Source: Hormiphora californensis
Taxonomy: Eukaryota; Animalia; Ctenophora
DNA length: 64,000 bases
Direction: 5' to 3'
Assembly: GCA_020137815.1 (NCBI GenBank)
Contig: CM035361.1
Coordinates: 124,001 to 188,000, forward strand
Shown: in pieces, positions 3,806 through 59,790 of the stretch
Layout: every line of letters begins with the position of its first letter
Numbering within the stretch: the stretch's first letter is position 1
Notes under the pieces: generated by a model
Seen by the model: only the letters and a program-made list of their open reading frames with translations
What the model was told of the DNA's origin: nothing
Databases searched by the model: none
Program-made: the position numbers and the translations under genes

Positions 3806-6800
3806 CTACGAAACAAGCGGCCTCACATCCACTTTAACCTTATTGATAAGTCTCATGACAGCCATATTCTGGTTGATCATGGGTGGATTTTTCAAATCAA
3901 ACGCCTGTGTCATTTCGAAATTTTTACACAGAACAGAAAGAGAGAGCTTCATCAGCATCATAGCGAGATGTTTTCCTAGGCATCCCCGGGATCCAGTCCA
4001 GAAGGGGAGGTATGAAAAGGAGGCCGGGTTAAACCCATCGTTCCATCGATCCGGGTTGAACTTTTTCGGCTCAGCCCAGTTGGTTGGGTCCATGTGCATA
4101 ACATACTCGCTAAAGTGAATCCTGATGTTCTTACTCCATATCTTATACGGTCCGACCTTTCCTTTTCTGTTTGTGCTGAGGGGAGAAAGATTTAGCACGT
4201 GTAAGAGGATTCAACAAGAATTATTTGCATTATGTATCCATAATGCTACGTTTCCCTGCCCTCTTCGATTTGCCATTCAACTCGCCATTAAGTTTTTTTT
4301 CTTTTTTTTTAAGCTGTCCGCAAAATGGGGATTTGTGTTTTTCGAACTTTTGAAGAAAAAAAAACGCAATTTCTCCATTTGCATTTTCCCCAAAAACGCG
4401 CGGCCGATATAAAACAAATTTTGCCGCTACAGTTTATAGCCGCGCACGCCTCATAAATTTGCAATAGTTTGTGGCGCGCATGTTACTCCGCAAACTTCAA
4501 ATCGCGCGCGCCGCACGGTTGCCCCTCGCAACGAAAGTGTGACCAAAAAATGTCCCTCTACCGATTAGTTAGTATACCAAAATGTCGTTTTCGAATTCTA
4601 ACCCTGCTATGCCTTTTTACAAAGTAAAAAGGCATCCGGGTGGATGCCTTCGGCATCCACCCGGGCAGGGAAAAAATGCAGATCAGACTCGGTCTCGATA
4701 GCATTTGGCTTACACACTTGACACACGTGTAACGTGTTGGAGAAACGTGTTGATAATATTGGTAAAGTGGGCTTGGTAAATATGTGTGTGTGAAGGAAAG
4801 CAAGGAAAGGCGGACAACAACCATGATCTCAGCATTTTAAAACTGAAGTAATACTTTCAATGTCATCTACGTCGTGAGATAAGGACAAAGTGTGTAGTTA
4901 ATCCATAAGAATAAACAATTTACAATGCATCGTAAATATCACTTACAGGTAATTTCGAGTTCCTCTTAGTAGGGCAGGGCCCATTCGAAGTCCTTCCAGC
5001 AAGCATTTCTCAGTATATTCCAACCTGAAATGATATTTGAAATTATTGGAGTACAATTGATTTAGTAGTAGTACTTAATAGTATATATTATGTATTCACA
5101 AGGCCATTCACAAAAAAAACAGCAAAGTTGACTATTTCTTAAACATTCGGTTTCACGAAAGATTTTAACGAATGTGATTTATGGACCGATTTCTTACTTG
5201 GAAAGATCTCTGAAATCATTAATCTCGGTTGAACGGAGTTCAGTCATAAGCTTGCTCTGCACTTCAGGTTCTTTATCCAAAAACATGAAAAGGCTACACA
5301 ACTGTTTCACCATATTATCCATCACCAAACAAACCTGAAAAAGAGAATAACTTTGATACCCCCTGCATTCTGTTGCAGACACATGTCATGTATGCCGTCT
5401 GTACAGCAGACTAGGGGGACTCTGACAGCTGGATTAATCTCGCTTACCGTCATAAGATCATCAACAACGCTCTCAATAACAGAAACCATATTCCTCAAAA
5501 CTTTCCCATCATCTGACATATTCGCTTCAATCAAGAGGCCAATGAGATCATCTGATTTTTGCTCACCCATTCCCTTAAACTCCTCCGTTTTCCGGGCAAC
5601 AATTGGCATCAGATCTTTTCGCATTTTTTGGATCAGCTTGGTCATGTCAATCTAGCGAGGGGGTGATTACTGGTTAGAGATCACCAGGGCTTGGCCTGGT
5701 TATCTATTACCTAGAGGGCTCGCTTGGTTGTACAAAAACCGATAACTACATCGAACCCTCCCAATTTTCCCAGTTCTGTTACATTTTTAGACCCTCAAAA
5801 CGACACTGAAGTTTAAACAGTGTTATCTGTATTAGTGTAAGCTGAGGCTACGTACCTTATCTTGAGACATAAAGTATCGATATCGGTCGAAGAGAGGTTT
5901 CGGAATCGCCTCCAAAATCTTGAAAACATGGTCAGCAACAACCTCCGGCGAATAAAAGTCTTGGAGGCCAAAGACTTGGAGATAGGCTGCAAATGTAGTA
6001 AAAACAGTAGCAATCGACAAACTTATACTTCGTCATTGTAAACGGACCAAATCCTCCCTGTATATGGCCTTCATTGACTACCAGAAGGCGTACGATTCGA
6101 TCCCACACTCCTGGATTCTGAAATCAATGGAAATGCTGAAAATAAACCCACAGATCATACGACTGTTCGAGGCATCGTTCCAGCAGTGTATAGTTAATTT
6201 AGTCCAATCCAGCTCCACCTTAGGCAAAGTCCACATTAAAAGAGGCCTCTTCCAAGGAGACTCTGTCTCCCCGATACATTTTATTATAGGACTGATCCCC
6301 CTATCCTTGCTCCTAGCTGCCCAAGGAAGAGGCTACACACATTTCTGATCCAGAAGCACCCACCACAGATATTGATATTAACCCACGCCTCTATATGGAC
6401 GATCTTAAACTATACGCTAGCTCGAAAGAGGGCCTACAGCAGCTGTTGGCAGTCACCGAGAAGTTTAGCACAGACATTAACATGTCCTTTGTATATCCAA
6501 ATGTGGAGCACGACATCGTGGACGGAGTCAGAAGTCGAATGCAGGGAATAGATCTACCGAGTGGAAAGACAACCCGGAAGTGGAAGATGGTGGATATAAA
6601 TACCTTGGTATCCTGGAGGCTGACTCGATTCTACATCAAGAAATGAAAGCCAAGGTTAAGACCGAATACACCAGAAGACTTAAGAAACTACTGTCTTCCA
6701 ACCTGTCTGGTAAAAACCTCGTCGTTGCAATCAACACGTGGGCAATACCGGTGATTCGATACGGTGCCGGAATACTGATTGGACCACCACAGAGGCCAAG

Positions 6801-8298
6801 GGACTGGACCTAATTACTCGGAAAATCCTAAGAAGAGGGTTCTTGAAATACAACAGCGACGTTGATCGTCTATATGTGAGCAGAAAGAAGGGAGGAAGAG
6901 GCCTCCAGAGGATTGAAGACGTTATAGTAAGGGAAGGAACAGGACTAGCGACGTTCTTCAGCAACTCAACTGATCCCAAGATAATTGCACTCAAACAAGC
7001 AATGGGAAGAGAAGGAATGCTGACGGAACTCCCAGAGGAGGCCGAAACCCTGACAGAAAGACTGGAGGCGCCCTGATAGAGAACTGGAAGAAATAATCAC
7101 TGCATGGACGTTTCCTGAAGCAACTTGAAGAAGGGGATGCGACCCTGATGCGACCTGGGCCTGGCTCAACAAAGAGAGCCTCAGCAGATACACCGAAGCT
7201 GATGTATTTGCTGCCCAGGAGCAAGCCCTCGCACAAACTGGCTGACAGCTGCTATCGAGAAACAACCTGGAGAGTCCGAGAAGTGTCGCATATGCAACCA
7301 GCATAACGAGTCAGTCGAACACATCCTAAACGGATGTCAGAAGCTGGCCAACGGTGACTATAAGCACAGACACGCCGAGTAGCTGCTGCCCTACACTGGG
7401 GAATGTGCAAGGACTATGGATTTCCTGCTGAATCAAAGTGGTGGAGCCACTATGCAGAGAAAGTTCTCGAGAATGAGAATTACAAGATCCTCTGGGATTT
7501 CCACATCCAGACGGACAACCCCATTGAGGCGTGCAAACCCGACCTGTCCTCCTGACAAGCAAAAGAGGGAGGCACTACTCATCGATGTCGCCGTTCCAAA
7601 GGACCGATTAGTCTCTGACAGAGAGCTGGAAAAATCGAGAAGTACCAAGAACTGAGGAGAGAGTCACACGAATCTGGGAACTTAAAAGGCACGGTCATTC
7701 CCATCGTGATTGGAGCCCTTGGCGGAGTTGCCCCCGACTAGAAGTACTTGATGGCTATAACCCGCCAATTTACCCCTCACAGCTCCAAAAGTCAGCCCTC
7801 TTCACTCGATGAACCACGCTCCGAAGTCCTCGATATGTAATCAGCCTCCTGTATCCCCACTAGATGTATTTTTGTATTGTTTTTTACCGTTTCACCCGTT
7901 CCTGCTTGCTCTTAGACTGCCTTAGATCCCGTTCCAGTCGTTTTGTTCCAGACGTTTTGTTCCCGATAGGTTGACTCTTCTTAGATTCCGTTCCAGCAGG
8001 CTGAGCTTCTTTCCAGATAGTTTAGGAGGTCTTTTGCTCCGCCACCATGAGCTTTACTTCCCCTATTTATTTTTCCTTACCTTAACCAATAGTCATTGTT
8101 CAACCTACCCCTTTGTACATTGTTCTACCTACCTTTACTCCGCAGGCCCTCCGGGCCCTCAGATCCAACAGGATCGGGCTCGGGGATTCAACCCTGTTCC
8201 CACATGGGACCTTACGGTCCCATGTGGGAGTGGTGCGTGTAGTGGACCGAGAGAGAGAGAGAGAGGAGAGAGAGTGAGAAGAGAGAGAGAGAGAGAGA

Positions 8299-8340
<42 letters not shown>

Positions 8341-17480: not shown

Positions 17481-20400
17481 TCATATCTTACTACACCTTG
17501 CACACCCCAAATACAGCGCTTTCGTTAACATGTTGACGTGACACGGCATCTGCTTCCTAAATCCCCCGTCCCCCGCCACAACCCTTCCCAGGGCAACTTC
17601 CTTGTTCACTCGGGTCATCATCGTATTGACATCCTCCGTGAGGGAGTACTCAGAGATGATGGAACAGAGATCGGAGATAAACCATGATCCTTGATTGATG
17701 TTCCGGAATGAGTAATAACCTGAGGAGGGGGTCATTTAGATGGAGAATTATATCTCATTCTAGAGGGCGGGGAAGCCGGAATAGAAGTGGGGGAGAATTG
17801 TATTTGGAGGGGAAGAGTACGATAGAACGGGACCGTTCTGAACAATAATAATAGAAGAAAAGATAAATCTACAGAGAAATTAATTTTCCTGTTTATAGAA
17901 GCAGGTCAAACTTTCACAGGGTTTTTGTCGTCACAGTGCAGATATAGTCGTGCTGTTGGTTGTGATTTTGGCCATATATGGTGCTGTATGCTATAATGCC
18001 CATATATGGTGCTAAATGCTATAATGCCCATATATGGTGCTGTGGCGATACTCACACTATTACAGGCTGGTGGATGACTTCAAACGGAGAGAGCCAGTCA
18101 GCATGTTAACATGGTAGGGCATCTGTTTCACGTACTCTCCACCGAAATTGTGATGATATCCTGTTAAAGAGAAATAATATTTAACTGGAGGGAGGGGGTC
18201 GTAATTTTAGTCTTAAAAGTCAAGGATGATTCAGAAATATGATAATCCGTAGATGATTCATAATAATGTTCCTCAAACCAACCTAGAGCGACCTTCCGGT
18301 TGACTCGCGTCATCATCGTATTAACATCCTCATACTTTTGAAAACTTGATAATCACCTCCAACAGGCACTGGATAAACCAACTACCGTCTTTTGTGTTAC
18401 GGAAAGCTAAAGTAACCTGCCGGAAAGTGGGTTAGGGGGAGCGATATGGGGACAGGGGTGGTTACTAACCACCGGTTAGGGGTTAGGTATTAGTTACCTT
18501 ACACTTCACTCCTAGTTAGCACTGGTAACCGGGGGGAATTAGGTGAGTGAAAAAGGAAGAGGTGGAAGTATGGCAGTGGGATACAATTCTTGAATGCTAA
18601 AATATGAGGTGCATCGTGGATATTAAAGGTGCTACATAAACATGAATCAATATTTTGTACGTTACGTTGTGTTTAGTTACCTAGGCAACGAACAGTCTGC
18701 ACTGTGACAACAAAACCAAATGAAATTAAGATAGAGAGGGAAAAAGAGAGAGAGAGAGAGATCCAAATCAATCTGAACAATTACAGCCCAACAATTATTT
18801 ATTTTTACACGCTATCCCAAGAGGGTCAGGGTGGCTGTTGACCAGCCCCTCAAATACCTGGTGCAGTGGCATATGAAATGTAAAAGTCGGCACAAGCAGG
18901 AATACTAATTGGTTTGCTGCTTTGCTGTTCAACATCATTATCATCACCCTTAGCATCGTGATCAATTAGCACCTTATTGGGAGAGGGATGGAGGAAATTA
19001 GCAGCTAATTGGGATGGAGGAAATAATATCTACATAAAACCGATATCTGGGTAAAGATAAAGTAAATCAGAACTTGTATTTGAGGGTCCGATATAACAAT
19101 ATACCTCCGTATTAAAGCTCTTTCCCCTGCACGCTTGAATAATAAACCATTTAGGGATTCCCCGTAGCGCCTTGCAACTATCTCCCTTGAACTGATTTAT
19201 AATATCGTCTATCTTTTTCTGAGGAATACAATAGGGGTTAGAAAGATTTGTTCTACAACATGTGTTGCAGGGCGAGGTGAGAGAGAGGAAGAGAAAGTGA
19301 ACTCTTGTTTTTCCGCTATATAATAAGGTCTCATGGTTATTGGTAAAGCATAATACGATAGTAAAATTGAAGACATTTTACTTTACCAGGCCCCGTGAAT
19401 AAATGTACACAATTGTATTCCGTAAGTGTGTGTGTGTACATAATTTATTATTTATGTACAAAACGATTCTGAAATATAAGGGGTCTGTGTGTGGGCGCGC
19501 GAGACACTCTCAAATCTCGTCTTCGCGCGTTCCAACAAATGCAGTAATAGTACACACTTCTAACTTCAGGAGATCTTGCTTCTGAGAGCAACTGACAACA
19601 TCTTGCATTTGATAGTTAAACTAGCAGATAGTTGGAGCAATTTGATGTTTCCGTATCGATTGGAAAACTTGGCAGAGGATCAAATTGTAAATTAAGAGAG
19701 CGGTGATCTAAACTTAACTCTGCCATTTTGGAATTTCAGTTTACATGTTTAGGTTTGTAATTTACTAGATAGAAGCACTATACTTTGGTCAACACGTGAC
19801 CTGTATGCCCTTATTTGGTCAGCACGTGACTATAACACTCACATCACGTCCATCAACACAGTTCAGTGCCTCATTCTCTCCGTGAGAGAGGAATACAGCC
19901 ACAAAGCAGTTATACTCGTCTAGCGCTGGGAAATCATTGACTATCATGTTCAGAACACTGCAGGGAGGAGGGGATGGGTTTAACACACACTGTATCCATG
20001 TTAAAGGTGGGTTTAGATTAATCTGTCGAACAGTTCGACTCGAACTCTCACATAAAATACGTTGTGAGCTACAACACAAGGTTTGGATAGTAATATTTTC
20101 AAGAGGATTACCTATCAAGATTTGTTTTGGTAAGGTTAGACTGAGGCTCGACATCAAACCCTAAACTCTTGAAAAGTTTCGCAGTTGCCTGAGCATCGAC
20201 TGTAGATCCTTTTCTGTCCTTCAAAGCTGATAAGAAGTGCTGATAAGAGAACACGTGACATGTATGCCCTTATTTGGTCAACACGTGACCTACATGCCCT
20301 TATTTGGTCAACACGTGACCTGTATGCCCTTATTTGGTCAACACGTGACCTGAACAGCCTTTGTATTCATACTCAATATTACTTACCGTGATTATTCCCT

Positions 20401-23316
20401 CTAGCAGAAGTATAATCCTCGTTATTGACAATCAAACAAAACCCTTTCTTTTTTCGAGCGTTCATAGAGTATGCAGGAAGTGCGTTAAAATCTGGCCTGA
20501 ATAGAGTTGATAGGAGTTATGGTAATAGTTTATTGATTTGGGGGCGACATGATCCCTGGATGACTGAGTCATCAAATCCTTCACAAAGGAGTTAATAGCA
20601 ATACTCGTGCTATTAAATACTAATTACCGTTTAATTGGCTCCTTCATTTCCTCTGCAGCAGAGGCCCCGTTACTGTCCCTGGATTTAGATTTAGTTGAGA
20701 ACATTCCATCGACATCCTGAGTCTCTTCATCTTCCGAGATCTCACCTGGGACGAAGCAATTAATTAATCTCTTATTAAGGTTTGAAATTTAATGGATTTT
20801 GAGAACACACGGGGCCGGGATTGCCATTTGCTCCCGGTCGGGCCCTGTGTAACTCACATTTTAGAAAATATCACCAACTAACCATCAACAGGAGAGATAG
20901 CAGAAGTAGCTCCATCAGCCTCCAGATATTTCACATTCAGAACAGGCAACCTATCAAATGCATCAATCTTGCTCTCGTTCCATACCTGCTCCCTGTAGGA
21001 AGAGATCTGTGTGTTACACTTGTTTTAAGGGTACACCTGGCGTTTTTCATCATCGAGTGCCCAACCAAATGACTTCACCAGGGTTTAGGCCATACAAAAT
21101 GGACCTCAAATATGCAATTTTAGCCCTAAAGTCGAATTCATATTTTTGCTACAGCCTATTTTCAAAGTGGCGTTTTTTCAATTTTTGTTGAAATTTTTAA
21201 CCTCAGGACCACTTTTTTTGAGATAGAAACATTAAATTCTTGGAATTTGAAGAGAATATAAAGGTGAATAAGCCCAAAGAAGGATTTTTGAAATGGAGCT
21301 TATTTCTGGCCATGAGAACGGTTTACTTTTTTGCTTCTTTGACACGCTGGCTGAGAATGTTCCCATGCTTCATTAGAGATGAAAATCTGGAAATAGTTGC
21401 TCAAAACGATTATCTATGTGGCCCAAAAATTTTGGAACTTTCCCGCCAAAGATGTGGTGTACAGAGCTTTTTTTGTGAAACCTGTCTTTTTGAAAAAGAG
21501 GGAAATTCCCTGTATCTCAAAAACGGATGATCGTAGAGACCTGGGACCGAGCTTAATCGATTCAGAAGGTTCGATTTTGGGGGGGGGGTCTTCTGAGAGA
21601 CATTTTGCTCCTACTCCAACCGATTTTGCTGTAATTGCGATCGATTAAGCTCGGTCCCAGGTCTCTACGATCATCCGTTTTTGAGATACAGGGAATTTCC
21701 CTCTTTTTCAAAAAGACAGGTTTCACAAAAAAAGCTCTGTACACCACATCTTTGGCGGGAAAGTTCCAAAATTTTTGGGCCACATAGATAATCGTTTTGA
21801 GCAACTATTTCCAGATTTTCATCTCTAATGAAGCATGGGAACATTCTCAGCCAGCGTGTCAAAGAAGCAAAAAAGTAAACCGTTCTCATGGCCAGAAATA
21901 AGCTCCATTTCAAAAATCCTTCTTTGGGCTTATTCACCTTTATATTCTCTTCAAATTCCAAGAATTTAATGTTTCTATCTCAAAAAAAGTGGTCCTGAGG
22001 TTAAAAATTTCAACAAAAATTGAAAAAACGCCACTTTGAAAATAGGCTGTAGCAAAAATATGAATTCGACTTTAGGGCTAAAATTGCATATTTGAGGTCC
22101 ATTTTGTATGGCCTAAACCCTGGTGAAGTCATTTGGTTGGGCACTCGATGATGAAAAAAGCCAGGTGTACCCTTAACCCTCCTTCACAGACGTGGAGAAA
22201 GAGGAGAGAGGGTCGAACAAAGCTGTGTGTTACACTTGGTATGTACATTGTACAGTCGAACCCCGAAATACGGGGATGCTCGGGGGAAAGGGATTTGTCC
22301 GGTAAATCAGAGTCAGGCTGTATGTAATCTAGTATGACGTAAGTTTAGAGATTTGTATACACACCAGGTGTGTATGTATGGAGATTGAGTAGTAGGTTTG
22401 CATTCAACCTAATTTTACACTATATGTACATTGTACCTATATTCTAATTGTAGGATTTCAACAGTTTGAAACAGTACAAGAAGAAAACTGCAGACAAGTT
22501 TAGTAGACTTACTAAGCTAGTACTGGACACGTGACCTGAATGCCCATATTTGGTCAACACTTGACTTGTATGCCCTTATTTGGTCAACACCTGACCTGAA
22601 TGCCCTTATTTGACTTACTCTGCTAGTACAGGAAACTGTTTATACAGTATTTCCCGAGCCTTTTTGAAGTTCACCCAACCCTTCTTTGGCAGACACTCGT
22701 GCAGTTTTTCCACCTGTAGAGGTTGGGTAAATTAACATACATAATACAGTGTAGCTCATGGTATCTAGATCAGTAGAGATTGGGGATTAGCAATATATCA
22801 GTGTAGCCCATTGTTTCTAGGAAACTGTTGGTGGATGGGGAACTGATTCAGGTATTTACCTTGTCCGAAACAACAGGAATTCCCTTGATGGCTTTCTGGT
22901 TAAAGGAAGATAACACCTTGGCTTCCTGAAATAAATAAATTGATTAATTAATTAATCAATCAAGGGAATTAGAGAGGGAATTAGAGAGGGAATTAGTTAA
23001 TCAATTACGAGAATTGGAGACATTTTAGTAGTTACTTAGTTACTGGTTATTCTAGTAGTTCTTTTTTATTTCAGAACCCGAATCTTTTCACTTAATCCAA
23101 CTACTGCACACAGGTTTGAGTCGGTGAAACAAGACAATTAATTATGATTAATTATAATTAACACTAAATTCTTACTGTGAGTGCATCGATTAGTTCAGTA
23201 AACTGCTCCTCTTCAAAGTTGAATTCCAACAACCGCTCTCGATTAACCTCTAGAATCTGTTTTGACCACCTCAATTGGTCTTCAACTCTTAGCTCGTCTA
23301 TCGGTTTATCTGTCAT
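17481..23316 (-). CDS. Caspase with N-terminal death-fold (CARD-like) prodomain and two alternative p10 3' cassettes
   Basis: About 10 shared exons from ATG 23316 to ~18858 encoding GFCLIVNN, RKGSTVDA, VFLSHG, PKWFIIQACRG and IPACADFYISYATAPG. Then cassette A (18416-18283 plus ~18160-18059) or cassette B (~17719-17481). Confidence 0.92.
21029..22172. mobile_element. Foldback DNA element with ~533-bp TIRs and TTAA TSD (Kolobok-like GG..CC ends)
   Basis: 21029-21561 is the near-perfect reverse complement of 21640-22172. TTAA on both sides. Lies in a caspase intron. Confidence 0.9.
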
Positions 23317-23651: not shown

Positions 23652-26645
23652 TCATCCGAACACCTCTTGTGCTGCGTAGGTAACGTATAAAAATCCATCG
23701 TCTTCTCTGTACATTTCATATACCTTGGGAGAGACATTTCATTGGAATGTGTTGATCTAAATACCGAAGATCAAGGCACAAAACTCAAGTATTTCTGCTT
23801 ATTTATATTGTATATGATTATTTTGACAGATTTAACCCAATTTACCTCAGACATGCTCATAGAATGGGCAAGGATTGATTTTCCTCGAACTAGAAGGTAC
23901 ATTGTGTGGGATCGATCCAGAGACATACGAGTTCTAGAATAACAGTATATTATTAGTTAGTTACACTTGAAAATAAAATGAATTGGTCTGAACGGGAGAG
24001 TCTAACCAAGAATTGGAGAAATCGATTCGGGTGTAGACAATAATAATAACGGATTTTTTATAGGTATTGACATCGCCAAATATGTTTGTTTAACAAATAA
24101 TTCATTTACCTGAGAATCAGTTGAAATTGCCTCAAAGCCAGCTCACTCGGAACCAGGAACTTGGATTTGGACAGACTGAAACATAAAGTATAGTTCAATG
24201 AAGAGTTTTTACAAAACAAACAACTTCAAGCACTGAACCAGTTTAACACAGCGGTCCAGTCACCCCATCCAAAGAAGTGTGTTTCAATTTACTTGACTGA
24301 TAAAATATAATTCAATGAAGAAAGAAAGATGTATGTGAGAAAACACACATGCATGCTACAAGGGGAGCTATAAGAGGATGATGTAACATATATTAATATG
24401 ACGTCATATCATGGATGATCTAATAGGAGACATGTTTGTGCAAGCTGAAATATTGTTCTGAAGGATCCAAGCTTTAAAATCACATTACTTACCGTGGCAG
24501 CACTTTCTCTTTTGCATATCGTTCCACTATTACCTGCAACAAAGTTGTACAAGAGAGGGATCAGAGGGTGTATCATGTGACATCACGTGCCTGCCATATT
24601 TGGACACGTATCACGTGACTAATGACCATACATGGGCATGTGGGGTTTACAACTCCGATAGGAAGAGAGAAGTACTTGAATTTCGAGTGCCCAGATAATA
24701 TTGAGATTATGCAAAGTGTCATGAGAGACGGCATCAAGCTTCTAGCAAAGCGGACTATGTACATGTGATATTGTGTTACACGAAAATTAGCTGAGCCGAG
24801 AAAGCAAATGACTTGCTGAAGCTGATATATAACCTTATTTTGTGAAATTTTAGACCTAATTAGGTAACTTAAGTAACTGAATGTTTTACACACAGTGTGA
24901 AACCTGGAGAACACTTGGGGCAAACTTTGTGAGGGTCGATAAACAATGTTTTGACTTGGTTTGGTTCGGATTATTCATCAGTCAAAGTGTGTGTTCCGAC
25001 CTAGTATCTTGAACTATTCACTGTTTTTCGTGAGTAACTCCGTGTCCAGCGAATCAAGTACAATCTTGTTTTGTTTAAACCCTTTTTATTTTTTGAAAGG
25101 ATAGAGAGGGTCGAACAAGTATAGTCTACTGTGAAAGGTAAAGTTCGTTGAATTTTCTCAATACAAGTAGCCTTGTTGCTAGTATAGTAGAGTCGATAAC
25201 TACATCGACCTCTCCCAATTGTTCCAGTTTTTGTCACATCTGTTTGGAGCCTCGACACGACCTCTAAACAGGTGTTACTTTTTCACAAACTGTTTTCATC
25301 TTGGTGTAATCAGCAGTTGAAATGTTGCTGATCATAACAAAAACCTGACTAAATTTTTTCAACTTGGGGTAAAACCATGGGTGTCAAAAGTTAGCTCTAG
25401 GTCCCCTGAGTAACCATCCGGAGACTCTAAGAGATATTTCAAGCCGTTCTCCCGTAATCATTAATCCCGGTGGAGAAAAAAATACAATGCGGACGTACGT
25501 GAGCGCTGGCAGGCTGTTTACATGTTATTGTATGTCTCTCACTCTCTCTGGAAAAACCGCACGTGCGGTTGCGCCGCGCGAGATAACTCTTTCTCAAGGG
25601 GGAGAAAAGAGAGAGACGCACATTAACGTTATACATTAAAGTTGAGGTTGTAGGCAATTGCACGTACGTCCATACTCAAATATGTGCTCTACCGGGATTA
25701 ATGATTACAGGAGAACGGCTTGAAATATCTCTTGGAGTCTCCGGATGGTTACTCAGGGGACCTAGAGCTAACTTTTGACACCCATGGTTTTACCCCAAGT
25801 TGAAAAAATTTAGTCAGGTTTTTGTTATGATCAGCAACATTTCAACTGCTGATTACACCAAGATGAAAACAGTTTGTGAAAAAGCAACACCTGTTTAGAG
25901 GTCGTGTCGAGGCTCCAAACAGATGTGACAAAAACTGGAACAATTGGGAGAGGTCGATGTAGTTATCGACTCTACTAGTATAGGGAAGTAGAAACGTGTG
26001 AAAAGAAGACGTACCGGTACTTTATCGGGAAACTTGTTCTTTATGTTGTAGACCTCTGCCTTCCGGGAAGCTGGAATAATGAGTAGGGTGACTTAATGTT
26101 GACTGAGAGGGAGGGAGAGGGAGAGAGAGAAATGGAATGGACGAAGGGAGAGAGGGAGAGAGAGAGAGAGAGAAAGGGTATGGACGAAGGGAGAGAGGGG
26201 TTGAATTTCATTTCGAATGTTAAATACACACACACGAACGTCAAACACACTGCAAATATGCATAACAAGTATAACATATGACACGTTACAATTTACATGC
26301 TACTACAGAACGAATAGATTCCGCATGGCAAGAGACCAAATTATAGAAACTGCATAATTTTACTGTTTACGAATAATTCCAGATTAAATATCGAGGAAGT
26401 TATTCCCGGAGGGATCATTTTAAACACACAATTAAGATCATCCCAAGATGTCCCCTTCTCTTTTTCTATGGTCCCGATAGTTCGATTGGGTTTTCCTAAC
26501 CAGACACTTTTAGAATAAGAAAAAGAACATGTCCCCTGTACATTTTACCACACAATTAAGAAGGATCATTCCAAAATGTACACTTACCGAGGGAGCGCCT
26601 CTCTTTGAAGGGTTTATACGATATCTGGTAACTGCTGCTGTTCAT
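23652..26645 (-). CDS. MAP1LC3C: ATG8/LC3-family protein (LC3C-like), 6 exons
   Basis: Exons encode MNSSSYQISYKPFKERRSL / ASRKAEVYNIKNKFPDKVP / VIVERYAKEKVLPR / LSKSKFLVPSELALRQFQLILR / TRMSLDRSHTMYLLVRGKSILAHSMSMSE / VYEMYREDDGFLYVTYAAQEVFG*. Not in the ORF track. Family is secure; the subfamily call is by eye. Confidence 0.9.
25185..25977. mobile_element. Foldback element with ~290-bp TIRs, TAG..CTA ends and 3-bp TSD gta (Academ-like)
   Basis: gta|tagtagagtcgataac ... gttatcgactctacta|gta, in an LC3 intron. Confidence 0.85.
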
Positions 26646-27879: not shown

Positions 27880-29516
27880 CATAGTAACATGTGGTGCAGT
27901 TTGTTACAGTCAACTCCAAAGTCGAATTCCGGCTCTGAGTGATCCTGGAGAGGAGGAGATGGGGTGTTAGGGCCTGGTTAATCAGGGGGTGAGTTAGGGG
28001 TGTTGGTGTGAGATAGATAGAAACTGGGGTTTCGGTTCAGATAGCAGGTGTTAAGTGATTAGATATAACATGGGCTATACCAGTACACGAGAGTGTAAAT
28101 TAGCAGTTAGGCGATTGAGAAAAACAACCTAACTGGGATTTTAGAGGATAGAGCTGGACACAAACCTTATCACAGTAATCCTCCACATCATCAGCTTCAG
28201 GTCGAGATGTGATCTCCTTATCAGTCTGGGTCATAGCTTCCAGCTGAGATCTCTTGGCTGCTGGGCCGGGCTGTTCCTCTTCAAGATCTCTTTCCTGAGA
28301 GGGAAGGGGTGTTAGAGGGTAAAAAAGAGGGTTGGTAAAGATGGGACAGTGTTCCGTGTTCGACTAATCGTAACGTTATCTGTAGAGAGAATATATGTTA
28401 TATATTATATCTGCTATCTTGGGAATAGCAAGTGTCATGTTGTTCGGGCCCCAGGGGCCAGGGCCGGGCCTACAGGGTTACTAGGAAAGTTTTATAAATT
28501 TCGGGGGGTCACCAAAAATGAAAAAAGAAGGTTGTGGAATTAATACCACCCAGGGAAGATAAACGGTTGCCAGGGATTACTATGGGCGGTTGTTGAGTAA
28601 GGGCAGGGGCCAGGGTTTATGTCTGCTAAACAACTGATAAAACCTAACATCACATTCGAGTGATCCGGTCCTGCAACACAACCACCCACAACTAGAAGGA
28701 TAGGATCACATACGCGAGATCTTATCCCGTACTACAGCTACATACAACGAAAGAGAGAGAGAGAGGAGATTGAGAGAGGCGGAGAGAGGTAGATAGAGCC
28801 AGAGCGAGAGAGTGACAGCTAGTAGCTACTGAGGGTGGATTGAGGATTCATAGAATGGTAGCTAGCAGGTAGGGTGAGAGAAAATAATTAGAGAATTAAA
28901 ATATTTTGACTTGTCATTTGTCAACTAAAATATAGAGAACTATAAAGCATAATCTACCACTGGTTGCTCTCACCTTATAATGTCGATGCCATAACCACTC
29001 GGCTGCGAACAGAGGGGCGCGACATGCAACATAACCCCTTTTCCCATCGATCACTGACAGTGATTCACTGCTTCCTTTCCTGTTCCACCTGCAGCTGTAG
29101 CTGTTGATGTATGAGATAGTAGTTATCCTCTGATGGACTATTTTTGAGAAGGACAATCAACCGTTGAACACCTGGAATTGAGTGTGTGGGTTATAGATAT
29201 GATGTCAAGAGTACTGAGTAGGTTGGCATCCCTATATCTAAATTCTCAGCATGCTGCATGAGACCCATAACGACGTTATAACCTTCGTTTAAATTTGTAA
29301 AAGAGGGCGGGCGCACGCAAAGAGGGTAGAGCCAGGGAATAACGATGAGTCAGTGTAAAATTTTGGCTGACCTCTTGAATACCACCCACCCAAAAGAGTT
29401 TAATAAATATATTTTGGAAAGCTTAAATTTGGAGTGTTAGACGATATGAGACACGATTTGGAGAAGGTTTCTCTCACTACCCAGTATCCAGTACCCACCC
29501 CTCTCTCTTTCTCCCG

Positions 29517-29609
<93 letters not shown>

Positions 29610-30970
29610 CCACTACACGCACCACTCCCACATGGGGCCGTGAGGCCCCATGCGAGAGCAGGGTTAAATCCCCCGGACCCGGATCTGAGGGCCCGGAGGG
29701 CCTGCGGAGTAAAGGTAGGGTAGGTAGAACAATGTACATACGGGTAAATTTAACAATGTACATATGGGTTAAGTAAAGGGGATGATATTAAAAAGGGGGA
29801 AGTAAAGTGGGATTAAAGCTCATGGTGACGGAGCACAAGACCACCTAAACTTTCTGCAAAGAAGCCCAATCTGCTACAATGAATTCTAAGAAGAGACAAC
29901 TTATATGGAACTGAAGAAGCAAACCGTCTGAATCTAAGGCAGCCTAGAACAAGCAGGAACGGGTTCGAGCGAAAAAAAATAATAAATTAATACAAATGGA
30001 TGATGATTACATGTCGAGCCAGAGAGGACAGCCAGCCCGTTCCAGAGAAGCCAGCTGACCCCGTTCCAGAGAAGAAAGCCGACCCCGGTCCAGAGAAGCC
30101 AGCTGACCCCGCTCCAGAGAAGCCAGCTGACCCCGTTCCAGAAAAGCCAGCTGACCCCGTTCCAGAGAAGCCAGCTGACCCCGTTCCAGAGAAGACAGCC
30201 ACCCCGCTTCAGAGAAGACAGCTGACCCCGTTCCAGTAAGGACAGCTGACCCCGTTCCAGTAAAGACAGCTAACCCCGTTCCAGAGAGGACAGCCACCCC
30301 GCTCCAGAGAGGACAGCTGACCCCGTTCCAGTAAAGACAGCTGACCCCGTTCCAGTAAAGACAGCTGACCCCGTTCCAGAGAGGACAGCCACCCCGTTCC
30401 AGAGAGGACAGCTGACCCCGCTCCAGTAAGGACAGCTGACCCCGCTCCAGTAAGGACAGCTGACCCCGCTCCAGAGAGGACAGCCACCCCGCTCCAGAGA
30501 GGACAGCTGACCCCGCTCCAGTAAGGACAGCTGACCCCGCTCCAGAGAGGACAGCCACCCCGTTCCAAAGAATCATCTCCGATGTAGAACCCTATCAAAA
30601 ATGGAAGAAGTGGGTTAGGGGGGCCAGTAGAACAAAAACAGTATTGGTTAGCGGGTTAGTGGATAAAGGGGCGTTGGGGGTCCACAGTTGGCTGGAAGAT
30701 GCCTGTTCCACTGGTAACCCTGAGCCGGAGAAGGCGGGGTAGGAACGTAATAGTTGGCGATGATACACTGTGGGCCACCTAGCCAAGAAGATGTTTTTGT
30801 ATTTTGTATTTTCTGATTTTTTTCCGCATTTCTGATACACAGCCACGCTCAGCCGCGGCCACACGGACCTGGAAATCGAACAGGGGGAAAAGGGGATGGG
30901 GAAAAAGGTACTCCGTGTGACCCCGTTGCCCGGGGGAAACCGATTGGAGGTGGTGGCAGGTGGACCAACT

Positions 30971-31015
<45 letters not shown>

Positions 31016-32000
31016 GGGGCGTGGTTTTTCTCAACAGGACCACCCTGACATAACTGACAATAACACTAGCCACAGCCCCACACAGTCACCTATATCAACC
31101 AGATCTCATCTATCCCCAACGAACTTGGATCAACCAGCAGCCACATGGTTAGGGGTGTAGTAGTAACTCTCGATTATTACTGGTCCGTTCTGATAGCGCA
31201 GTGTGAAGTCCTGAGGGGGAGGGAAAACGTGTAAAACAAGATTTTGGTATAACAGAGCTTTGACGATTAAAAAGCCTTGACAGTCAATCCTGATAAGTTA
31301 CCCTGTATAAGAACTCCTCCAGTGGAACACTCGGTGTTGTTATGGTCAACAGTAAAGGTAACAACATCTCCTATATCATCTGTTTAGTGGGATCAATAAT
31401 GAGCTACCTAACTCGTGTGGGTAGTCTGAGTGCCCTACCCCCATTTCCAATCAACTGAACCTGCAGCAGGGAGAAGGATGGGGAGATACGTATAGGCAGA
31501 GTTTTGAAATGAAAGGAAAAGAGAAAGAGAAAGGGAAAGGGAAGGGAAGGGAAGGGAAGGGAAGGGAAGGGAAGGGAAGGGAAGGGAAGGGAAGGGAAGG
31601 GAAGGGAAGGGAAGGGAAGGGAAGGGAAGGGAAGGGAAGGGAAGGGAAGGAAGGGAAGGGAAGGGAAGGGAAGGGAAGGGAAGGGAAGGGAAGGGAAGGG
31701 AAGGGAAGGGAAGGGAAGGGAAGGGAAGGGAAGGGAAGGGAAGGGAAGGGAAGGGAAGGGAAGGGAAGGGAAGGGAAGGGAAGGGAAGGGAAGGCCAAGG
31801 GAAGGGAAGGCCAAGGGAAGGGAAGGCCAAGGGAAGGGAAGGCCAAGGGAAGGGAAGGCCAAGGGAAGGGAAGGCCAAGGGAAGGGAAAATATTACTATT
31901 ACTGTAGTATTACTGCGATAATTCACCTCTAGCTTAGTATTGGTTGTGTGAGTGTTCACTGTAGTCCATGTTCTATAGCAATCCTGCCTAGCCATGGACG
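27880..32000 (-). CDS. Candidate exons of an unidentified gene
   Basis: AG/GT-bounded open segments near 31995-31927, 31460-31410, 31379-31301, 29171-29063, 28294-28166 and 27944-27880. Frames could not be joined consistently and no family was recognised. Confidence 0.3.
30021..30570. repeat. 24/23-bp minisatellite (gacagctgaccccgttccagagag variants)
   Basis: Tandem units seen directly. Confidence 0.95.
30842..30975 (-). ncRNA. HDV-like self-cleaving ribozyme
   Basis: P1 GGGGGAG/UUCCCCC; P2 GCCACC/G(C)GUGGC; P3 ACC/GGU; L3 UCCAAUC; P1.1 CC/GG; GCAAC junction; P4 GGUCACACGGA/UCCGUGUGGCC; J4/2 GG-C-UGA with the catalytic C at 30852. Confidence 0.82.
31530..31888. repeat. (GGAAG)n microsatellite with a 16-bp derived tail
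   Basis: Seen directly. Confidence 0.97.
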
Positions 32001-33539: not shown

Positions 33540-35266
33540 AGAAACAAGGAGACAAGGAGACAAGGAGACAAGGAGACAAGGAGACAAAAAACAAAAAGAC
33601 AAGGATACAAAGCTAAGAGACAAGGAGACAAGGAAACAAGGAGACAAGGAGATAAGGAGGCAAGGAGACAAGGAGACAAGAAGACAAGGAGACAAAGAAA
33701 CAAGGATACAAAGAAACAAGGAGATAAGGTCATAAGGATATAAGGAGACAAGGAGACAAGGAGATAAGAAGCAAAGGAGACAAGGAGACAAGAAGAGAAG
33801 GAGACAAGGAGACAAGGTGACACGGATACGAGAAGACAAGGAGATAAGAAGACAAGGAGACAAGGAGATAAGAAGCAAAGGAGACAAGGAGACAAGGAGA
33901 CACAGATACGAGAAGACAAGGAGGTAAGAAGCAAAGGAGATAAGGATACAAAGAGACAAGGAGACAAGGAGATAAGGAGATAAGAAGACAAGGAGACAAG
34001 GATACAAGGATGCAAGGATACAAGGAGACAAGGAGGCAAGGAGGCAAGGAGACAAGGAGACAAGGAGAAAAGAAGACAAGGAGACAAAGAAACAAGGATA
34101 CAAAGAGACAAGGAGACAAGGAGATAAGGAGATAAGGAGACAAGGAGACAAGAAGACAAGGAGACAAGGAGGCAAGGAGGCAAGGAGGCAAGGAGACAAG
34201 GAGGCAAGGAGACAAGGAGACAAGGAGAAAAGAAGACAAGGAGACAAAGAAACAAGGATACAAAGAGACAAGGAGACAAGGAGATAAGGAGATAAGGAGA
34301 CAAGGAGACAAGAAGACAAGGAGACAAGGAGGCAAGGAGGCAAGGAGGCAAGGAGACAAGGAGGCAAGGAGACAATAAGGGTCACCACACACCAAAGTTA
34401 AAATTAAAATTAAAATTTTGATTTTAAACCCGCACACACCAACGGCCGTTAAAATTTCTCTCCCCCATTCTAAAAGTAACAATCTCGCGCGCGATTTTAA
34501 CGGCGTGTTAAAATTTTATCATCCAACGCGACCGTCAAAATCGTGCGTGAGATTGTTACTTTTAGAATGGGGAGAGAAATTTTAACGGCCGCTGGTGTGT
34601 GCGGGTTTAAAATCAAAATTTTAATTTTAATTTTAACTTTGGTGTGTGGTGACCCTAAGACAAAGAGAAAATGAGATAGGCAGATAAGGAGACAAGGAGA
34701 CACGGATACGAGAAGACAAGGAGATAAGAAGACAAGGAGACAAGGAGATAAGAAGACAAGGAGACAAGGATACAAGGAGATATGAAGACAAGGAGACAAG
34801 GATACAAGGATACAAGGAGACAAGGAGGCAAGGAGGCAAGGAGGCAAGGATACAAAGAGACAAGGAGATAAGGAGACAAGGAGACAAGGAGGCAAGGAGA
34901 GAAGAAGAAAAGGAGATAAGGAGACAAGGTGGCAAGGCCAGGAGGCAAGGAGAAAAGGAGATAAGGAGACAAGGAGACGCGGATACGAGAAGACAAGGAG
35001 ATAAGAAGACAAGGAGACAAGGAGATAAGAAGATAAGGATACAAGGATACAATGAGACAAGAAGACAAGGAGACAAAGAAACAAGGATACAAAGAGACAA
35101 GGAGACAAGGAGACAAGGAGACAAGGAGACACGGAGACAAGAAGACAAGGATACAAGGAGATAAGGAGACAAGGAGACAATGAGAGAAAGAGACAAGGAG
35201 ATAGGCAGATAAGGAGACAAGGAGACAAGAAGACAAGGAGACAAGAAGACAAGGAGACAAGGAGAC
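33540..35266. repeat. Degenerate 8-bp satellite (GGAGACAA)n
   Basis: Two arms (33540-34375 and 34659-35266), with a higher-order duplication in the left arm. Confidence 0.95.
34379..34655. mobile_element. PIF/Harbinger-like MITE inside the satellite
   Basis: TAA|gggtcaccacacacc ... ggtgtgtggtgaccc|TAA, with TIRs of about 110 bp. Confidence 0.85.
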
Positions 35267-35663: not shown

Positions 35664-38600
35664 TCACTTTTTCTCCGCAGTTGTGATACTCGTTTTGGTG
35701 ATCTGCGTGGTACGTTGTGGCTTTCTAGTCCTACTGATCGCGGTACTGACTTTCAAACCTCCCGACTTTGATCCAATCCCCTTCATTGAGCGGTATCTGC
35801 AGTAGGGGTTGGGTCTTAAATTATAGCTGTAATGCGTGCCTAGATTTCTGAGTCAAGTCTAGAAAGATTGGTCGAATGTTGTAGCTTAGGGCCTACCGAG
35901 CTAAGGTGAATGTGTAAATTATTCATGCCACGACTAAAATTATCTTTGCGTTTAACTTTACCGTGTTTTTAGTTCATATCCGTGTGGATTATCCACCAAG
36001 TTGAGGTAGTCTATCCACATCTTCGCCTCATCCAAATAGTTGTTGTTTAGGAGTTGTGTTGCCAGGGTTACCAGGAACTTTTCCATTCTTGGACGTTCAG
36101 GTCCCACTTTACAGAGAGTCCCAAGGCCAGATTTGAACGCCCTGGATTTGGGAGGAAATGTCAGTGCAGTTTTCGTATAATTTGCTGTATGTTCATGGAA
36201 GGAAGGGGAGTTTTCATTCTGATCTAGGGAACAAGGAGGGGATGGTAGCTTGACCGGAGTGGGGCCAGGGATCAAGCTCTGACAGCTCTCTCCCATCTCA
36301 CTGACAAGAGTTCATTTACCTGTCCATTAGTTCATGGGCCACAAGGTAGTTCTCCTCTATAATCCGTATAATACTGAGGTTCAGGAGAGCCCTGGCTCTC
36401 ACTGCTGCATCCTCAGAAGTCTCGGCAGCCTGCAGGAATGGAGGGAATTTTTAACGGTTTTTTCAACTTGTATTATGATAACGCTGGTTGTTAATTTTAT
36501 TTTACCAAATGCAGTCTCTAACTATGTTGACTGCATAACTGTTAATTATACCTTGAGGAGGTATGAGAGAGCTGTTTCACGAGATGACGCCAGGAGAGAT
36601 ACATTAGCTAACTCCAAGAAGCACCTGCCAAATTGTTAAAACAACTAGATCAGTGCAGTAAAGTATTCAACAAAATTTAATAAAATCCGACCCCACCGAT
36701 TACACGACAAACAGGAACCTGTCCCTAATCCCCCCTATTGCAATAACCTGTCTTGTCGGGGATTCAGGTAAAGTGCCATTTCCAGATACCGACTAATCTC
36801 CTCCAACTCTGATAAGATATCCTCTGTCATCTGCAACAGGAAACAGAATTAGGGAGACTGCAGTTTAGGGCCAGCTGGTTGGAGGTGAGCTAGTTTAGGG
36901 CCAGTAGCCCTAATTGATCCAATTTGTGCTGAATCAGGCCTGGTTAGGGTAGACTACTTACAAGTGTTACCTGTTATGGGAAATCTACTTACAACTGGAG
37001 GAGATGGCGGTGGTGGTGGCGGTGGAGGAGCCCCTTTGGACTTGTCTTTTCTGCTTTGCTGATGCTGAAAATGGAATTATATGAAAAATATGATTACAAA
37101 AGTATTTAGTACAATATATATTACAAACGTCAAACGACACACTGTTTTGTGAAATTTAGGGATTGCCGCCGTTTCTAACCGAAGATCGGGGTTTAGTTTC
37201 TTTCTCCTCCTTTTCTCCACACATCGTGTTCAGGTTTAGTTCTATCTGTGCACTCTCGTCAATATTTCCATCTGGAAGAGTGACAGTAGTGGGTTGAAGA
37301 TTGAAATCGCTCACTCTGAGCAATGCTCAGTGAGCATAGCGATCAAAAGTTTTTCACTCAAATGAAAGTGACAAGTGTGTTTAGGACATAAATACTTACC
37401 TAATGCTGCCTATAAGTGCAGTATAGGATCTTTTTTAGGTACCTTTTAGGTACTTTTTAGTGCGCTACCTTTCAGAATAAGCCCCTTCTTTGAGATTGCC
37501 AGTTCAAGATATGCCATAGAGGTGGGATGAGACTTTATTGAACGTTTGAGAAGATGTATTGAACCCTCCTTTCCCTCCCAGTCACCGTACCGGGACTTCT
37601 CTTTTGCTATCATGTAGTCGGTATATGGATCGGGTCGAGATAACGCCTGGAAGTGATTAACGGATACAATAACATTAATCAGTTAATTAATTAATTAAGT
37701 ATTATAGTAGCATAGGTTGAGCGTTATTTCCCTCGGTCTAACCTCTTTGAAAAGTTGGCTTGCTTGGGGATCCATTCCTGATCGCTGGGAACTGTCTCTC
37801 CTGTTCAGTAGTCGGCCAAGATAAACCTGTGTAATTCAAATTCAATGAACATGTTTATCGTTTGTTTAGGTTGCACTTGCACCGACAGATATAGCGCAGC
37901 GACTTCTATTCTAGATGAGGGACAGTGTACTGCAAGAAGCATGAATCATACCTTTGGGAGGTTGAATTCAGGGGAGGTCTGTATAATTGATCGGAGAGAT
38001 TCAGAGGAGGAGGAAAAGTAATAATACTCAGACATCCTGTAATTAGTTAATTGATTAATCAATTTCAGTATATGTTACGGCTCCTTAGTTTTTTTTCAAA
38101 ATATATTTACCTGTCAATATGTTTACTAAAATTATACTGCACCAGTGCTGCTCCGAAGCGTGCAAAATCACTATTTCCATCAAGTCGTAAACTATCCTCA
38201 AACAGTCTATCTGCTACACAGTTGAGCCCAAAGAAGCTGTGGGCCCATCCCAGATCAGCTAATGATCTACCTGCATTGAACAATCATCATGTGGATATCC
38301 CTCGACAATGTAGCATGTCAAGTGGATACTGGACTGGAGGAACTTTGCGACAAATATTACTATGGATCATAGATAGATAATTGAGGGAAAAGATGGCAGG
38401 TTTTTTATCATTAGTGTTCTACCTAATTTCTTGTTCTTGATGAATGTTGGTGCGGATGTAAGGGTGACAGCCAGCCTTTCAAGCCACAAATCAGCCTCCT
38501 CCGTCTCCCCTGACAACCGTAAAACATGGATCTTGTTCGCTGTTCCGACCAGGTTATCCTGCAATGCAATGCAATTATTTATTTAATTATTTGAGAGCTG

Positions 38601-40799
38601 CTGTCTTTGAGTAGCATGAGAGCTGCTGACTTTGTAATTTAGCTTATTCAGTGTGGGAGCATTTTTATGCCTATCTAAGTTGGTTCGTATTTTATGAGGC
38701 CCGTATTTTCATCAATAAAAGTCTATCTATGGTGTGTTTAAATCCAGATTTTAATAGTGTGTGTCATAAGTAATAGGCCAGTCACTTTTTGCTTAATTGG
38801 TGAACTGAGACATAACAAAGGTTTTCCACTTGCATTGTACTCCTATGGGGTCCCAGAAACACCAAAAAAATTGTTCACTCCGACCGAGGTGAAGAAAGTG
38901 CCCAAAATGGCCACGCCCTTTTTGCCTGTATTTTCAGCCTTGACCAAAAATAGCAACTTTGCTTTGGATTGGAGTAGAAACGTAAATGAGGGCACTAAAA
39001 TGTGTAGAATGAGCAGCAGAATCGATTGGTACCAAGTAGAAGTCGTTATCTCATCAGGTTCGAGAGATAATTGGATAATTAGGTATGCGCATAACCGTTT
39101 TTGAGCCATATGGCTATAGCCGCTCAGGAGCGGTTTCAGAAATTTTGCTTCACAGGAGCTTGTTCAGCATATAAAAATTAGTGGGGGTAATAAATATGAA
39201 GTTTTTATCGCATAAGGTCAATGAGTTATTCAACTTTAAAGATCGAAAAATGAGGGTAAAATGAAAGAAAATGAACCAAATTTCGACTTTTTACCCCCAT
39301 TTTTCGATCTTTAAAGTTGAATAACTCATTGACCTTATGCAATAAAAACTTCATATTTGTTACCCCCACTAATTTTTATATGCTGAACAAGCTCCTGTGA
39401 AGCAAAATTTCTGAAACCGCTCCTGAGCGGCTATAGCCATATGGCTCAAAAATGGTTATGCGCATACCTAATTATCCAATTATCTCTCGAACCTGATGAG
39501 ATAACGACTTCTGCTTGGTACCAATCGATTCTGCTGCTCATTCTACACATTTTAGTGCCCTCATTTACGTTTCTACTCCAATCCAAAGCAAAGTTGCTAT
39601 TTTTGGTCAAGGCTGAAAATACAGGCAAAAAGGGCGTGGCCATTTTGGGCACTTTCTTCACCTCGGTTGGAGTGAACAATTTTTTTGGTGTTTCTAGGAC
39701 CCCATAGGAGTACAATACAAGTGGAAAACCTTTGTTATGTCTCAGTTCACCAAACGGCCCCAAAATGACAAAAAATGACTGGCCTATAAGGAAGGTGTTA
39801 TAATTTAGGTATACCGCTCTGACGCTGAGCAGTGTCAGTCAAAATTCAGTTTGCTGGCCCTGTTTTGCCTGGGCGGTATACAAAAACGTATATTATTATT
39901 ATTATTATTATTAATTAATTAATAGTAGTAAGTTAATTATTGAGTAAAGTTAAAGTAACTCTTCTCCGCCCTTACTCAACAATAAATCAATGATTCTCAT
40001 CTTAGAATGAGTTGGCTGAATGATACAAAATTCTAACTTTCAAGACCTGAACTTGTATCAGCCACCTAGATCCATGCTAGCATTTGCATGATACCTCTGC
40101 AGCATATGATCTTAAAGAGTCGAGTACTCTGAATGAACCTCGATGAATTGAACATGAGCAATGAATGAATGAATTCAATCCTGTATGCACATGATTTTCT
40201 CTGTGGAAGAATCACTCCCATACTTGAGCAAAGAAAAAAAAACATCCTAAGATTTACAGATGCAGCAGTAAGCTACATGACTATGAGTATGACGTCATGA
40301 ATTTATAACAAAACATGTGAAAAATATTCAAGTTACCTTGTCGATACTCGTTGCAAGGTCGAAATATTTAAGGGCACATGTCACATTATCCTCCAAGTAG
40401 GCGAAGTATCCTAGCACATTGTATAGCGGGGCCCTGAGTGAGAAATATAATGCTCAATTTGATGACTGATGAGACAGAGGGAGTTATTAACAGCAATAAT
40501 CACTGCGCTGGCAAGCGCAAAGGTTGCCATCCCTTCCCCTCCTCCAAAGAAGTTTAGTAAATACACAACACAACTGAATTCTATGTTTTTTTCTATGTTT
40601 GATTACCTGTATGAAAGAGGTATTGAGTGAAGGAGGAGAGTTAGTCGCTCCAAGTTACTATCTAAATCGTTTACTTTCAAACTGAAAATGCATGGTAGTG
40701 TTATGTATTGTTAACTATTCAAATGACAGCAAAATGAACTCACCAAAATCCAAAATGAGATGGCACTGATTTTAAAATGTTTTCATTTGGTGGTCTCAT
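35664..40799 (-). CDS. TTC22/IFIT-like TPR protein, multi-exon
   Basis: MRPPNENILKSVPSHFGF..., RAPLYNVLGYFAYLEDNVTCALKYFDLA, DNLVGTANKIHVLRLSGETEEADLWLERLA and GRSLADLGWAHSFFG...LFEDSLRLDGNSDFARFGAALVQY. These parallel the N-terminal TPRs of TTC22 and IFIT as I recall them. Confidence 0.7.
38774..39786. mobile_element. Foldback element with ~490-bp TIRs, TAG..CTA ends and 3-bp TSD taa
   Basis: taa|taggccagtca ... tgactggccta|taa. Mirrored ORFs appear in the track. Confidence 0.88.
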
Positions 40800-43759: not shown

Positions 43760-44074
43760 GAAATCATCACAATATGAGGATATACCGAATGTGGAAGAGG
43801 CGACCCAGTTCACGGACCTACCAGAGGAAAACAGGGTGTCACCGGAGAATTCTGAACATAGCGGACCTGGCACGTAGGGCTGAGCTCCAAAATAACAGTG
43901 AGGGATAGATTCGATTCTAAATTCAGTGACGAGTTTAAAATATCCCCGGCCCCAGATTGTTGATGACCAAAATCAACTTTTCGAAAACATAATTCCAAAA
44001 AATTTGCTCAAAATTTTCTACAGGTGTTTTCCGGAAGAAATGTGGAAAACCGACCCCCATAACCCTCTCTGTAG

Positions 44075-50359: not shown

Positions 50360-50404
<45 letters not shown>

Positions 50405-51186: not shown

Positions 51187-51218
<32 letters not shown>

Positions 51219-59683: not shown

Positions 59684-59687
59684 GTTG

Positions 59688-59790
<103 letters not shown>

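Follow-up and report, generated by a model that had tools for sequence, protein, structure and literature searches.

Introduction

The closest described counterpart of the element reported here is the R2 short internally deleted element (SIDE) of Drosophila willistoni, which likewise joins a 5' ribozyme resembling that of hepatitis delta virus (HDV) to an unrelated middle lacking an open reading frame (ORF) and to a 3' untranslated region (UTR) about 80% identical to that of its long interspersed nuclear element (LINE), with the structure kept and the LINE's own target used (PMC3414825). Dong of Bombyx mori and R4 of Ascaris resemble the helper proposed below in being single-ORF LINEs with a reverse transcriptase (RT) and a restriction-like endonuclease (RLE), and their ribozymes have been tested and cut at the element 5' end (PMC3774820). 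In its accessible sections, a 2018 survey lists bipartite non-autonomous LINEs for RTE, Ingi, Vingi and R2 and for no other group, and it left sampling bias open as the cause (PMC5786205), and the accessible part of PMC6765202 adds no non-autonomous R4 partner. Here, we describe a minus-strand element in a 64,000-nucleotide stretch of the ctenophore Hormiphora californensis (assembly GCA_020137815.1, contig CM035361.1, positions 124,001 to 188,000; hereafter the window). In our judgment it is probably, with considerable room for doubt, an RT-less, (GA)n-flanked SIDE-type parasite of an R4/Dong-like LINE, freed from read-through transcripts by a slow HDV-like ribozyme.

Results

Organization and copies of the element

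The element and its (GA)n flanks consist of the following parts:
29606..30976, minus strand: whole non-autonomous element, 1371 nt from the 6-G start
30977..31015, minus strand: target-side flank, upstream (GA)n (30981-31015) and four extra G
30842..30976, minus strand: putative HDV-like double pseudoknot, with the predicted cut 5' of 30976 or 30975
30573..30841, minus strand: conserved unique segment after the ribozyme, ~270 nt
30019..30572, minus strand: minisatellite of 23/24-bp units, 554 bp, on a tandem-repeat reading
30007..30018, minus strand: remnant of the last codons of the LINE ORF (Leu-Asp-Met) and stop
29606..30006, minus strand: LINE-type 3' UTR
29606..29745, minus strand: structured 3' terminal domain, z -4.2
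29501..29605, minus strand: downstream (GA)n tract

One exact scan of metagenome contigs with the 3' junction as query returned three loci. Two of them, L001 (985 nt) and L003 (1042 nt), are full-length elements in two independent contigs, and both show the order (GA)n, head, unique segment, minisatellite, 3' UTR and (GA)n; the third, L002, is a LINE considered below. L003 is close to the window copy, and L001 represents a diverged subfamily with 84% identity to the window copy over the 5' 540 nt. The initial annotation had proposed a SIDE-like family whose 5' and 3' parts should occur together elsewhere between GA repeats. This is what we found: both parts are present in 3/3 full-length copies compared, and (GA)n stands on both sides of all three elements and also after both LINEs.

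Part of the element is present in 20/24 sequencing runs listed, and four runs were aligned to its repeat-free 5' 408 nt. For organism A, two runs yielded 689 and 1557 contigs on this stretch, figures that indicate many variant copies and are not a copy number. For organism B, a single contig from one run spans the 5' stretch and differs from it by 16 letters and 3 gaps, and those differences that are listed fall outside the ribozyme core. Among the 5'-junction loose ends listed, 5/5 continue as TC repeats on the plus strand (20 contigs, 4 runs). We are highly confident that the element belongs to a multi-copy, RT-less, non-autonomous family. Single contigs of run X3 carry additional internal deletions, namely a 338-nt skip at 30594-30933 and a minisatellite joined directly at 30700.

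The middle of the element had been described as devoid of RT and made up only of a minisatellite. The first part stood, as no RT was found when 48 homologues were compared with the three elements by tblastn (best E 0.004, low-complexity); the second has to be amended by the unique segment at 30573..30841, which keeps ~90% identity to L001 as far as ~30665, is divergent beyond, and would likely derive from the LINE 5' UTR. The minisatellite comprises about 20-23 units in the window copy, 7 in L003 and 4 in L001. A coding role for the ORF spanning it (30007-30591) was rejected because 23/24-bp units shift the frame. At 480-790 of L001, a different GC-rich sequence surrounds the short minisatellite, the LINE stop-codon remnant is missing, and the middle is possibly independent.

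The G run at the 5' join measures 10 G only in the window copy, 6 in L001, and 7 in L003 and in most of the 5' loose ends listed. A 10-nt hairpin of the 3' domain, kept by the other 4/5 sequences, is lost in the window copy; because of this loss and of its longest minisatellite, this copy may be a poor template. A scan for bacterial promoters, a method that does not apply to this element, was empty.

The 3' end and its related LINE

A related LINE lies in the same window:
5998..8249, plus strand: RT/CCHC/RLE LINE, 5'-truncated and frameshifted, followed by (GA)n at 8250-8344

The 3' end of the element aligns to this LINE (7865-8249) with 75.6% identity over 409 columns, and the two share the final 30 nt ahead of (GA)n, in agreement with the shared 3' UTR and the common junction claimed by the initial annotation. 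The match begins at the last codons and stop of the LINE, retained in the element at 30018-30007. Identity is highest in the terminal ~130 columns (96.5% to L002 and 92.0% to the window LINE), the body of the 3' UTR reaching 78-82% against the two LINEs and 78-86% among families. Among 5 sequences, a hairpin in the terminal domain shows one compensatory pair change and five that are one-sided. On this modeled structure, the domain at 29606..29745 is likely the recognition signal of the RT.

The window LINE had been named as the source of the protein, a role that it cannot fill because it is 5'-truncated and carries 22 frameshifting indels relative to L002. It is dead or poorly assembled and, by sequence comparison, a relative of the helper and not the helper itself. 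Its 5' start (~5998) has no GA flank and lies next to 139 bp that are repeated beyond a gap. The two identical 139-bp stretches (5859-5997 and 8863-9001) flank the LINE and a 100-N gap inside an exon that we take, by eye, to be cytochrome P450-like, and possibly reflect a haplotype or an assembly join.

The helper would be an intact subfamily, such as that of L002 or of the proteins P0002/3/5/6. L002 has 933 open codons to the stop and the same 3' terminus followed by (GA)n, its 5' end lying off the contig. P0002, P0003 and P0006 are full-length relatives of 1212-1216 aa with 86-89% identity to the window LINE; the best RT match of the latter is sb/3461068 (89%), and named RT matches come from Bolinopsis microptera (62-63%). 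P0002 contains an RT, a CCHC knuckle and a C-terminal PD..D..K endonuclease motif and has no N-terminal C2H2 finger, an anatomy shared by RLE LINEs (PMC5678591). Pfam recognizes in it only RVT_1 and a weak zf-RVT, with no apurinic/apyrimidinic endonuclease (APE) domain, and its best solved relatives are R2 proteins (E 1.7e-28 vs 4e-14 for L1). The single ORF, RT, CCHC, PD..D..K motif and lack of APE place the helper with the RLE-type (R2 group) LINEs. YMDD is found in 41/48 homologues, the other 7 having no match to the pattern. We assume the R4/Dong label from the YMDD motif, the missing N-terminal C2H2 finger and the microsatellite target; on these sequence features the helper LINE is likely of R4/Dong type. 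A search of the ESM Atlas returned only unnamed RT clusters. Protein P0001 (sb/3461068) is a chimeric gene model with SH3 and tyrosine-kinase domains and a piece of this LINE between them, probably a LINE inside a kinase gene.

Scans of viral contigs and genome contigs did not find the LINE 5' end, and a candidate remnant of the LINE ORF start near 30665 was rejected as not significant, since 29/150 control and 56/150 shuffled peptides reached or beat its score. The lack of a significant ORF-start trace would suit a hybrid origin, in which the head and the 270-nt segment came from a different retroelement and were joined to the 3' UTR of this LINE in the manner of the R2/R1 hybrid SIDE. Hybrid SIDEs do exist (PMC3414825), and no LINE-type departure is seen among the loose ends listed. 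We nonetheless regard a hybrid as improbable, since such ribozymes are known from LINEs of the R4 clade (PMC3774820, PMC5786205) and the LINE stop-codon region is kept in the element, as suits an internal deletion.

The ribozyme-like head

The head can be folded into nested P1, P1.1, P2, P3 and P4 in the right order, with 31/31 pairs present in 3/3 copies. On the minus strand, P1 (7 bp) pairs 30975-30969 with 30938-30932, an alternative register one base upstream (30976-30970) being equally stable (-11.6 vs -11.4 kcal/mol). J1/2 is 11 nt long, P2 (6 bp, one bulge) pairs 30957-30952 with 30848-30842, and P3 is ACC/GGU, closing a 7-nt L3 at 30948-30942. P1.1 (G-G at 30931-30930) is followed by the GCAAC junction, and P4 has 11 bp, a G-G mismatch and 2 further bp beneath a loop of 44 nt. 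The G at +1 is present and paired with C, and the catalytic-position C is 30852, in the CUGA of J4/2 (CUAA in L001). In L001, a compensatory change replaces G-C by A-U at the base of P4, and the remaining two core changes are unpaired (position 23 of L3, and CUGA to CUAA). Counting changes private to the window copy, 1/90 core sites are listed as variable vs 23/315 others (one-sided Fisher p=0.016).

An HDV descriptor with a relaxed L3, written after the element had been seen, gave a single match in 128 kb (both strands of the window), at 30975, and none in 12 block-shuffled windows or in 5000 shuffled heads. With an L3 following the canonical consensus, it gave 0 matches in the window. Neither the 3' domain nor the opposite strand gave a descriptor match that would indicate a further ribozyme. 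It is very improbable that G- and C-rich runs at a repeat end produced the fold by chance, or that the unit is an assembly chimera: such an origin could call on the post hoc descriptor, the lack of an Rfam match and the alignment of just three copies, and is opposed by the empty shuffles, by the same architecture in the two independent contigs of L001 and L003, and by a core conserved relative to loop and flank.

The initial annotation had seen every element of the HDV double pseudoknot in the head. The pairing pattern stands; L3 does not conform. In three copies it reads UCC(A/U)AUC, with A at 24 and U at 25 (30943) in place of the conserved C24 and G25, and no variant at 30943 is listed in four runs at a 5% threshold. 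The U20-G25 trans pair of L3 is thus not available, position 25 being U in 3/3 copies, and because U replaces G25 the head is not a canonical HDV-like ribozyme. An 8-nt L3 with a P3 mismatch may provide an alternative register in the model. In antigenomic HDV, U23/U28 is one of only 4/15 mutant combinations with >15% cleavage, and such L3 mutants were described in 2012 as not found in nature (PMC3386971). A wasp ribozyme with odd L3 spacing is active (PMC3774820). The ribozymes of the R4 clade, those of Dong and R4 included, could deviate in L3 already. No description of a natural U at position 25 was found in the literature searched, which left out most subscription papers; the accessible parts of PMC10879173 and PMC9901934 hold nothing on this position. 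In 7-G junctions the base at -1 is G. With U20-U25 in place of U20-G25 and with G at -1, a slow cut is predicted, and we think it fairly likely that the modeled head would show measurable but slow cleavage.

Complementarity between the two ends

Pseudoknot-free folds of the whole element bring nt 10-48 of the head into pairing with the terminal ~75 nt, with probabilities of about 0.7 in the window copy and 0.9 in L003. The complementary strands are 30967-30928 (minus; J1/2 to P1.1) and 29680-29606 (minus), and they are also found in L001, L002 and L003; the 7-mer of J1/2 also finds a complement at 30679-30685, within the element. With a 95-nt tail, pairing beats shuffles for 3/5 tails (0-2 of 300), the tails of the window copy and the window LINE being not significant (28-52 of 300). 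With the full 135-nt 3' domain, which contains a local competitor, pairing is not significant in 5/5 tests (51-81 of 250), and no covariation supports it. In the bolder version of our reading considered below, which we hold to be doubtful, complementarity of the ribozyme strand to the terminal 75 nt could provide a switch in which the two ends pair.

Other features of the window

By eye, we take 19033-20160 (-), 43993-44310 (+), 48827-59800 (-), 51427-52272 (+) and 60226-62086 (-) to be host genes, presumably caspase-like, calmodulin-like, glucosidase II alpha-like, G protein-coupled receptor (GPCR)-like and WDR12-like; the GPCR-like gene would be a single-exon ORF on the other strand inside the glucosidase II alpha-like gene. 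An exon at 37479-37646 is identical in 56/56 residues to the EukProt model sb/3470585. Identifiers of this style, sb/3461068 included, are those of Pleurobrachia bachei, and with the Bolinopsis microptera matches they agree with a ctenophore host. Long near-perfect palindromes with 84-97% arm identity, resembling foldback or miniature inverted-repeat transposable elements, occupy 21025-22176, 25185-25977, 38797-39753, 3200-3351, 34378-34656 and 45708-45910. Degenerate TTAGGG arrays (258-315 and 62473-62530) lie within a dispersed repeat, in opposite orientation near the window ends. Other long tandem arrays, with units of 5, 8 and 20 bp, are at 31531-31888, 33544-35266 and 44389-45463.

Discussion

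Proposed life cycle

A non-autonomous parasite with a slow ribozyme, which is the explanation that we favor, would propagate as follows. A copy inside a (GA)n tract would be transcribed from an upstream host or neighboring promoter, and its first 135 nt, predicted to fold into the double pseudoknot, would cut slowly at the junction between repeat and element. As R2 and Dong biology suggests, the LINE protein may bind the structured 3' ~140 nt; its RLE would nick another (GA)n, at which the RNA would be reverse-transcribed by target priming. Such a cycle would leave full-length copies flanked by (GA)n at either end, with 6-7 G at the 5' join, and this anatomy is observed. The 6-G start after ...GAG, together with the last G before AGAG..., fits one insertion point between G and A. 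The unit number of the central minisatellite is free to rise and fall (from 4 to about 23), which leaves only the two ends as apparently constrained. Slow cutting may cost little because the uncut leader begins with more target repeat, and it would spare host transcripts; both ideas are speculation.

Several points weigh against this reading. The first concern the fold itself. The single compensatory pair is reached in 178/500 shuffles and is not significant alone; the comparison of core with rest gives p=0.07 when limited to L001; and four random core changes would spare every pair 11% of the time. The covariance-model search suggested with the initial annotation failed to support the head, as Rfam returned no HDV-like family at E<=1 for the window or at E<=10 for the L003 head. 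The next concern activity. The U-G pair in L3 is a signature of HDV-like ribozymes, and the HDV U/U mutant, which is active, is 290-fold slower (0.006 vs 1.74 per minute) (PMC3386971). The R2 ribozyme of the sow bug, with C>A and G>A at conserved L3 sites, is inactive, and a G>A change abolished the activity of the Nasonia ribozyme (PMC3774820). The C. briggsae ribozyme carrying G25A showed no cleavage that could be observed within 60 s (PMC13635239), and G at -1 is the slowest base, by >25-fold (PMC1874588). A metatranscriptome contig joins 24 nt of upstream repeat to the head, and therefore represents uncut RNA or DNA. The last concern the genomic setting: a host gene over the element is not established, the candidate exon at 28166-28294 having no homologue; a splice-site scan for a host intron found nothing upstream of the element; and the LINE 5' end was not recovered in the contigs scanned.

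These observations could also be accommodated if the family were the same and its head a catalytically negligible pseudoknot, that is, a stable 5' module serving to shield the RNA or to bind the LINE protein, while an internal promoter, or copying that runs on into the upstream repeat, would define the 5' end. The family-wide absence of G25 and the G at -1 speak in its favor. Moreover, the HDV-like fold itself raises R2 template use, a stable fold has been proposed as a guard of the 5' end (PMC11331408), and the upstream repeat on uncut RNA could anneal to the target. We hold this to be unlikely, while leaving it an appreciable chance. No variant is listed for the catalytic-position C, the next A, P1.1 or GCAAC across 3 copies and 4 runs; the substitution is to U, among the few that are tolerated (PMC3386971); and the predicted cut coincides with the element boundary.

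A bolder version of the slow-ribozyme parasite can be proposed, although we consider it doubtful. This would be the first bipartite parasite of an R4/Dong-clade LINE, living in ctenophore GA microsatellites, with a ribozyme in which U-U stands for an 'invariant' U-G and which is either tuned down, so that copies scattered over host transcription units would rarely sever pre-mRNA, or compensated by other bases and still fast.

Comparison with known systems

A bipartite case in the R4/Dong clade bears on whether the restriction seen in the 2018 survey reflects sampling bias. With U at position 25 throughout the family, drift in the HDV active site is put to a natural test, and searches demanding G25 would miss this whole class. 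In addition, the head and the 140 nt common to the 3' ends delimit the smallest set of cis signals in a GA-repeat-targeted RT/RLE system.

The internally deleted LINE derivatives of trypanosomatids (NARTc, RIME and SIDER, from L1Tc/ingi) and the bipartite RTE and Vingi elements are comparable in architecture. Like the element described here, they have an HDV-like head, and Pr77 is also a promoter (PMC4035085, PMC5786205). They differ in their helpers, which are of APE type and show little target specificity. Kibi elements share a TC-microsatellite target and differ in being APE-type and autonomous, by comparison of descriptions, and Dong also targets a microsatellite, made of TAA repeats where ours is GA (PMC3812793). 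Dong and R4 are autonomous, unlike the ctenophore element.

The R2 SIDE uses a 28S rDNA target and R2 as helper, in contrast to the dispersed (GA)n and the R4/Dong-like helper proposed here; it is 529 bp long, whereas the ctenophore element is 1.0-1.4 kb with a variable minisatellite and an L3 without G25 (PMC3414825). As in the 3' domain of our element, the 3' ends of R2 SIDEs conserve structure despite sequence change (PMC3414825). For the ctenophore head, cleavage is a prediction, and the head may share its origin with the LINE. The initial annotation knew of no such family described in ctenophores. No description of a ctenophore ribozyme-headed family was found in the literature searched, which here also excluded Repbase, and the ribozymes of Dong and R4 had already been published. 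What is new is the non-autonomous partner, together with its GA target, its host and its variant L3.
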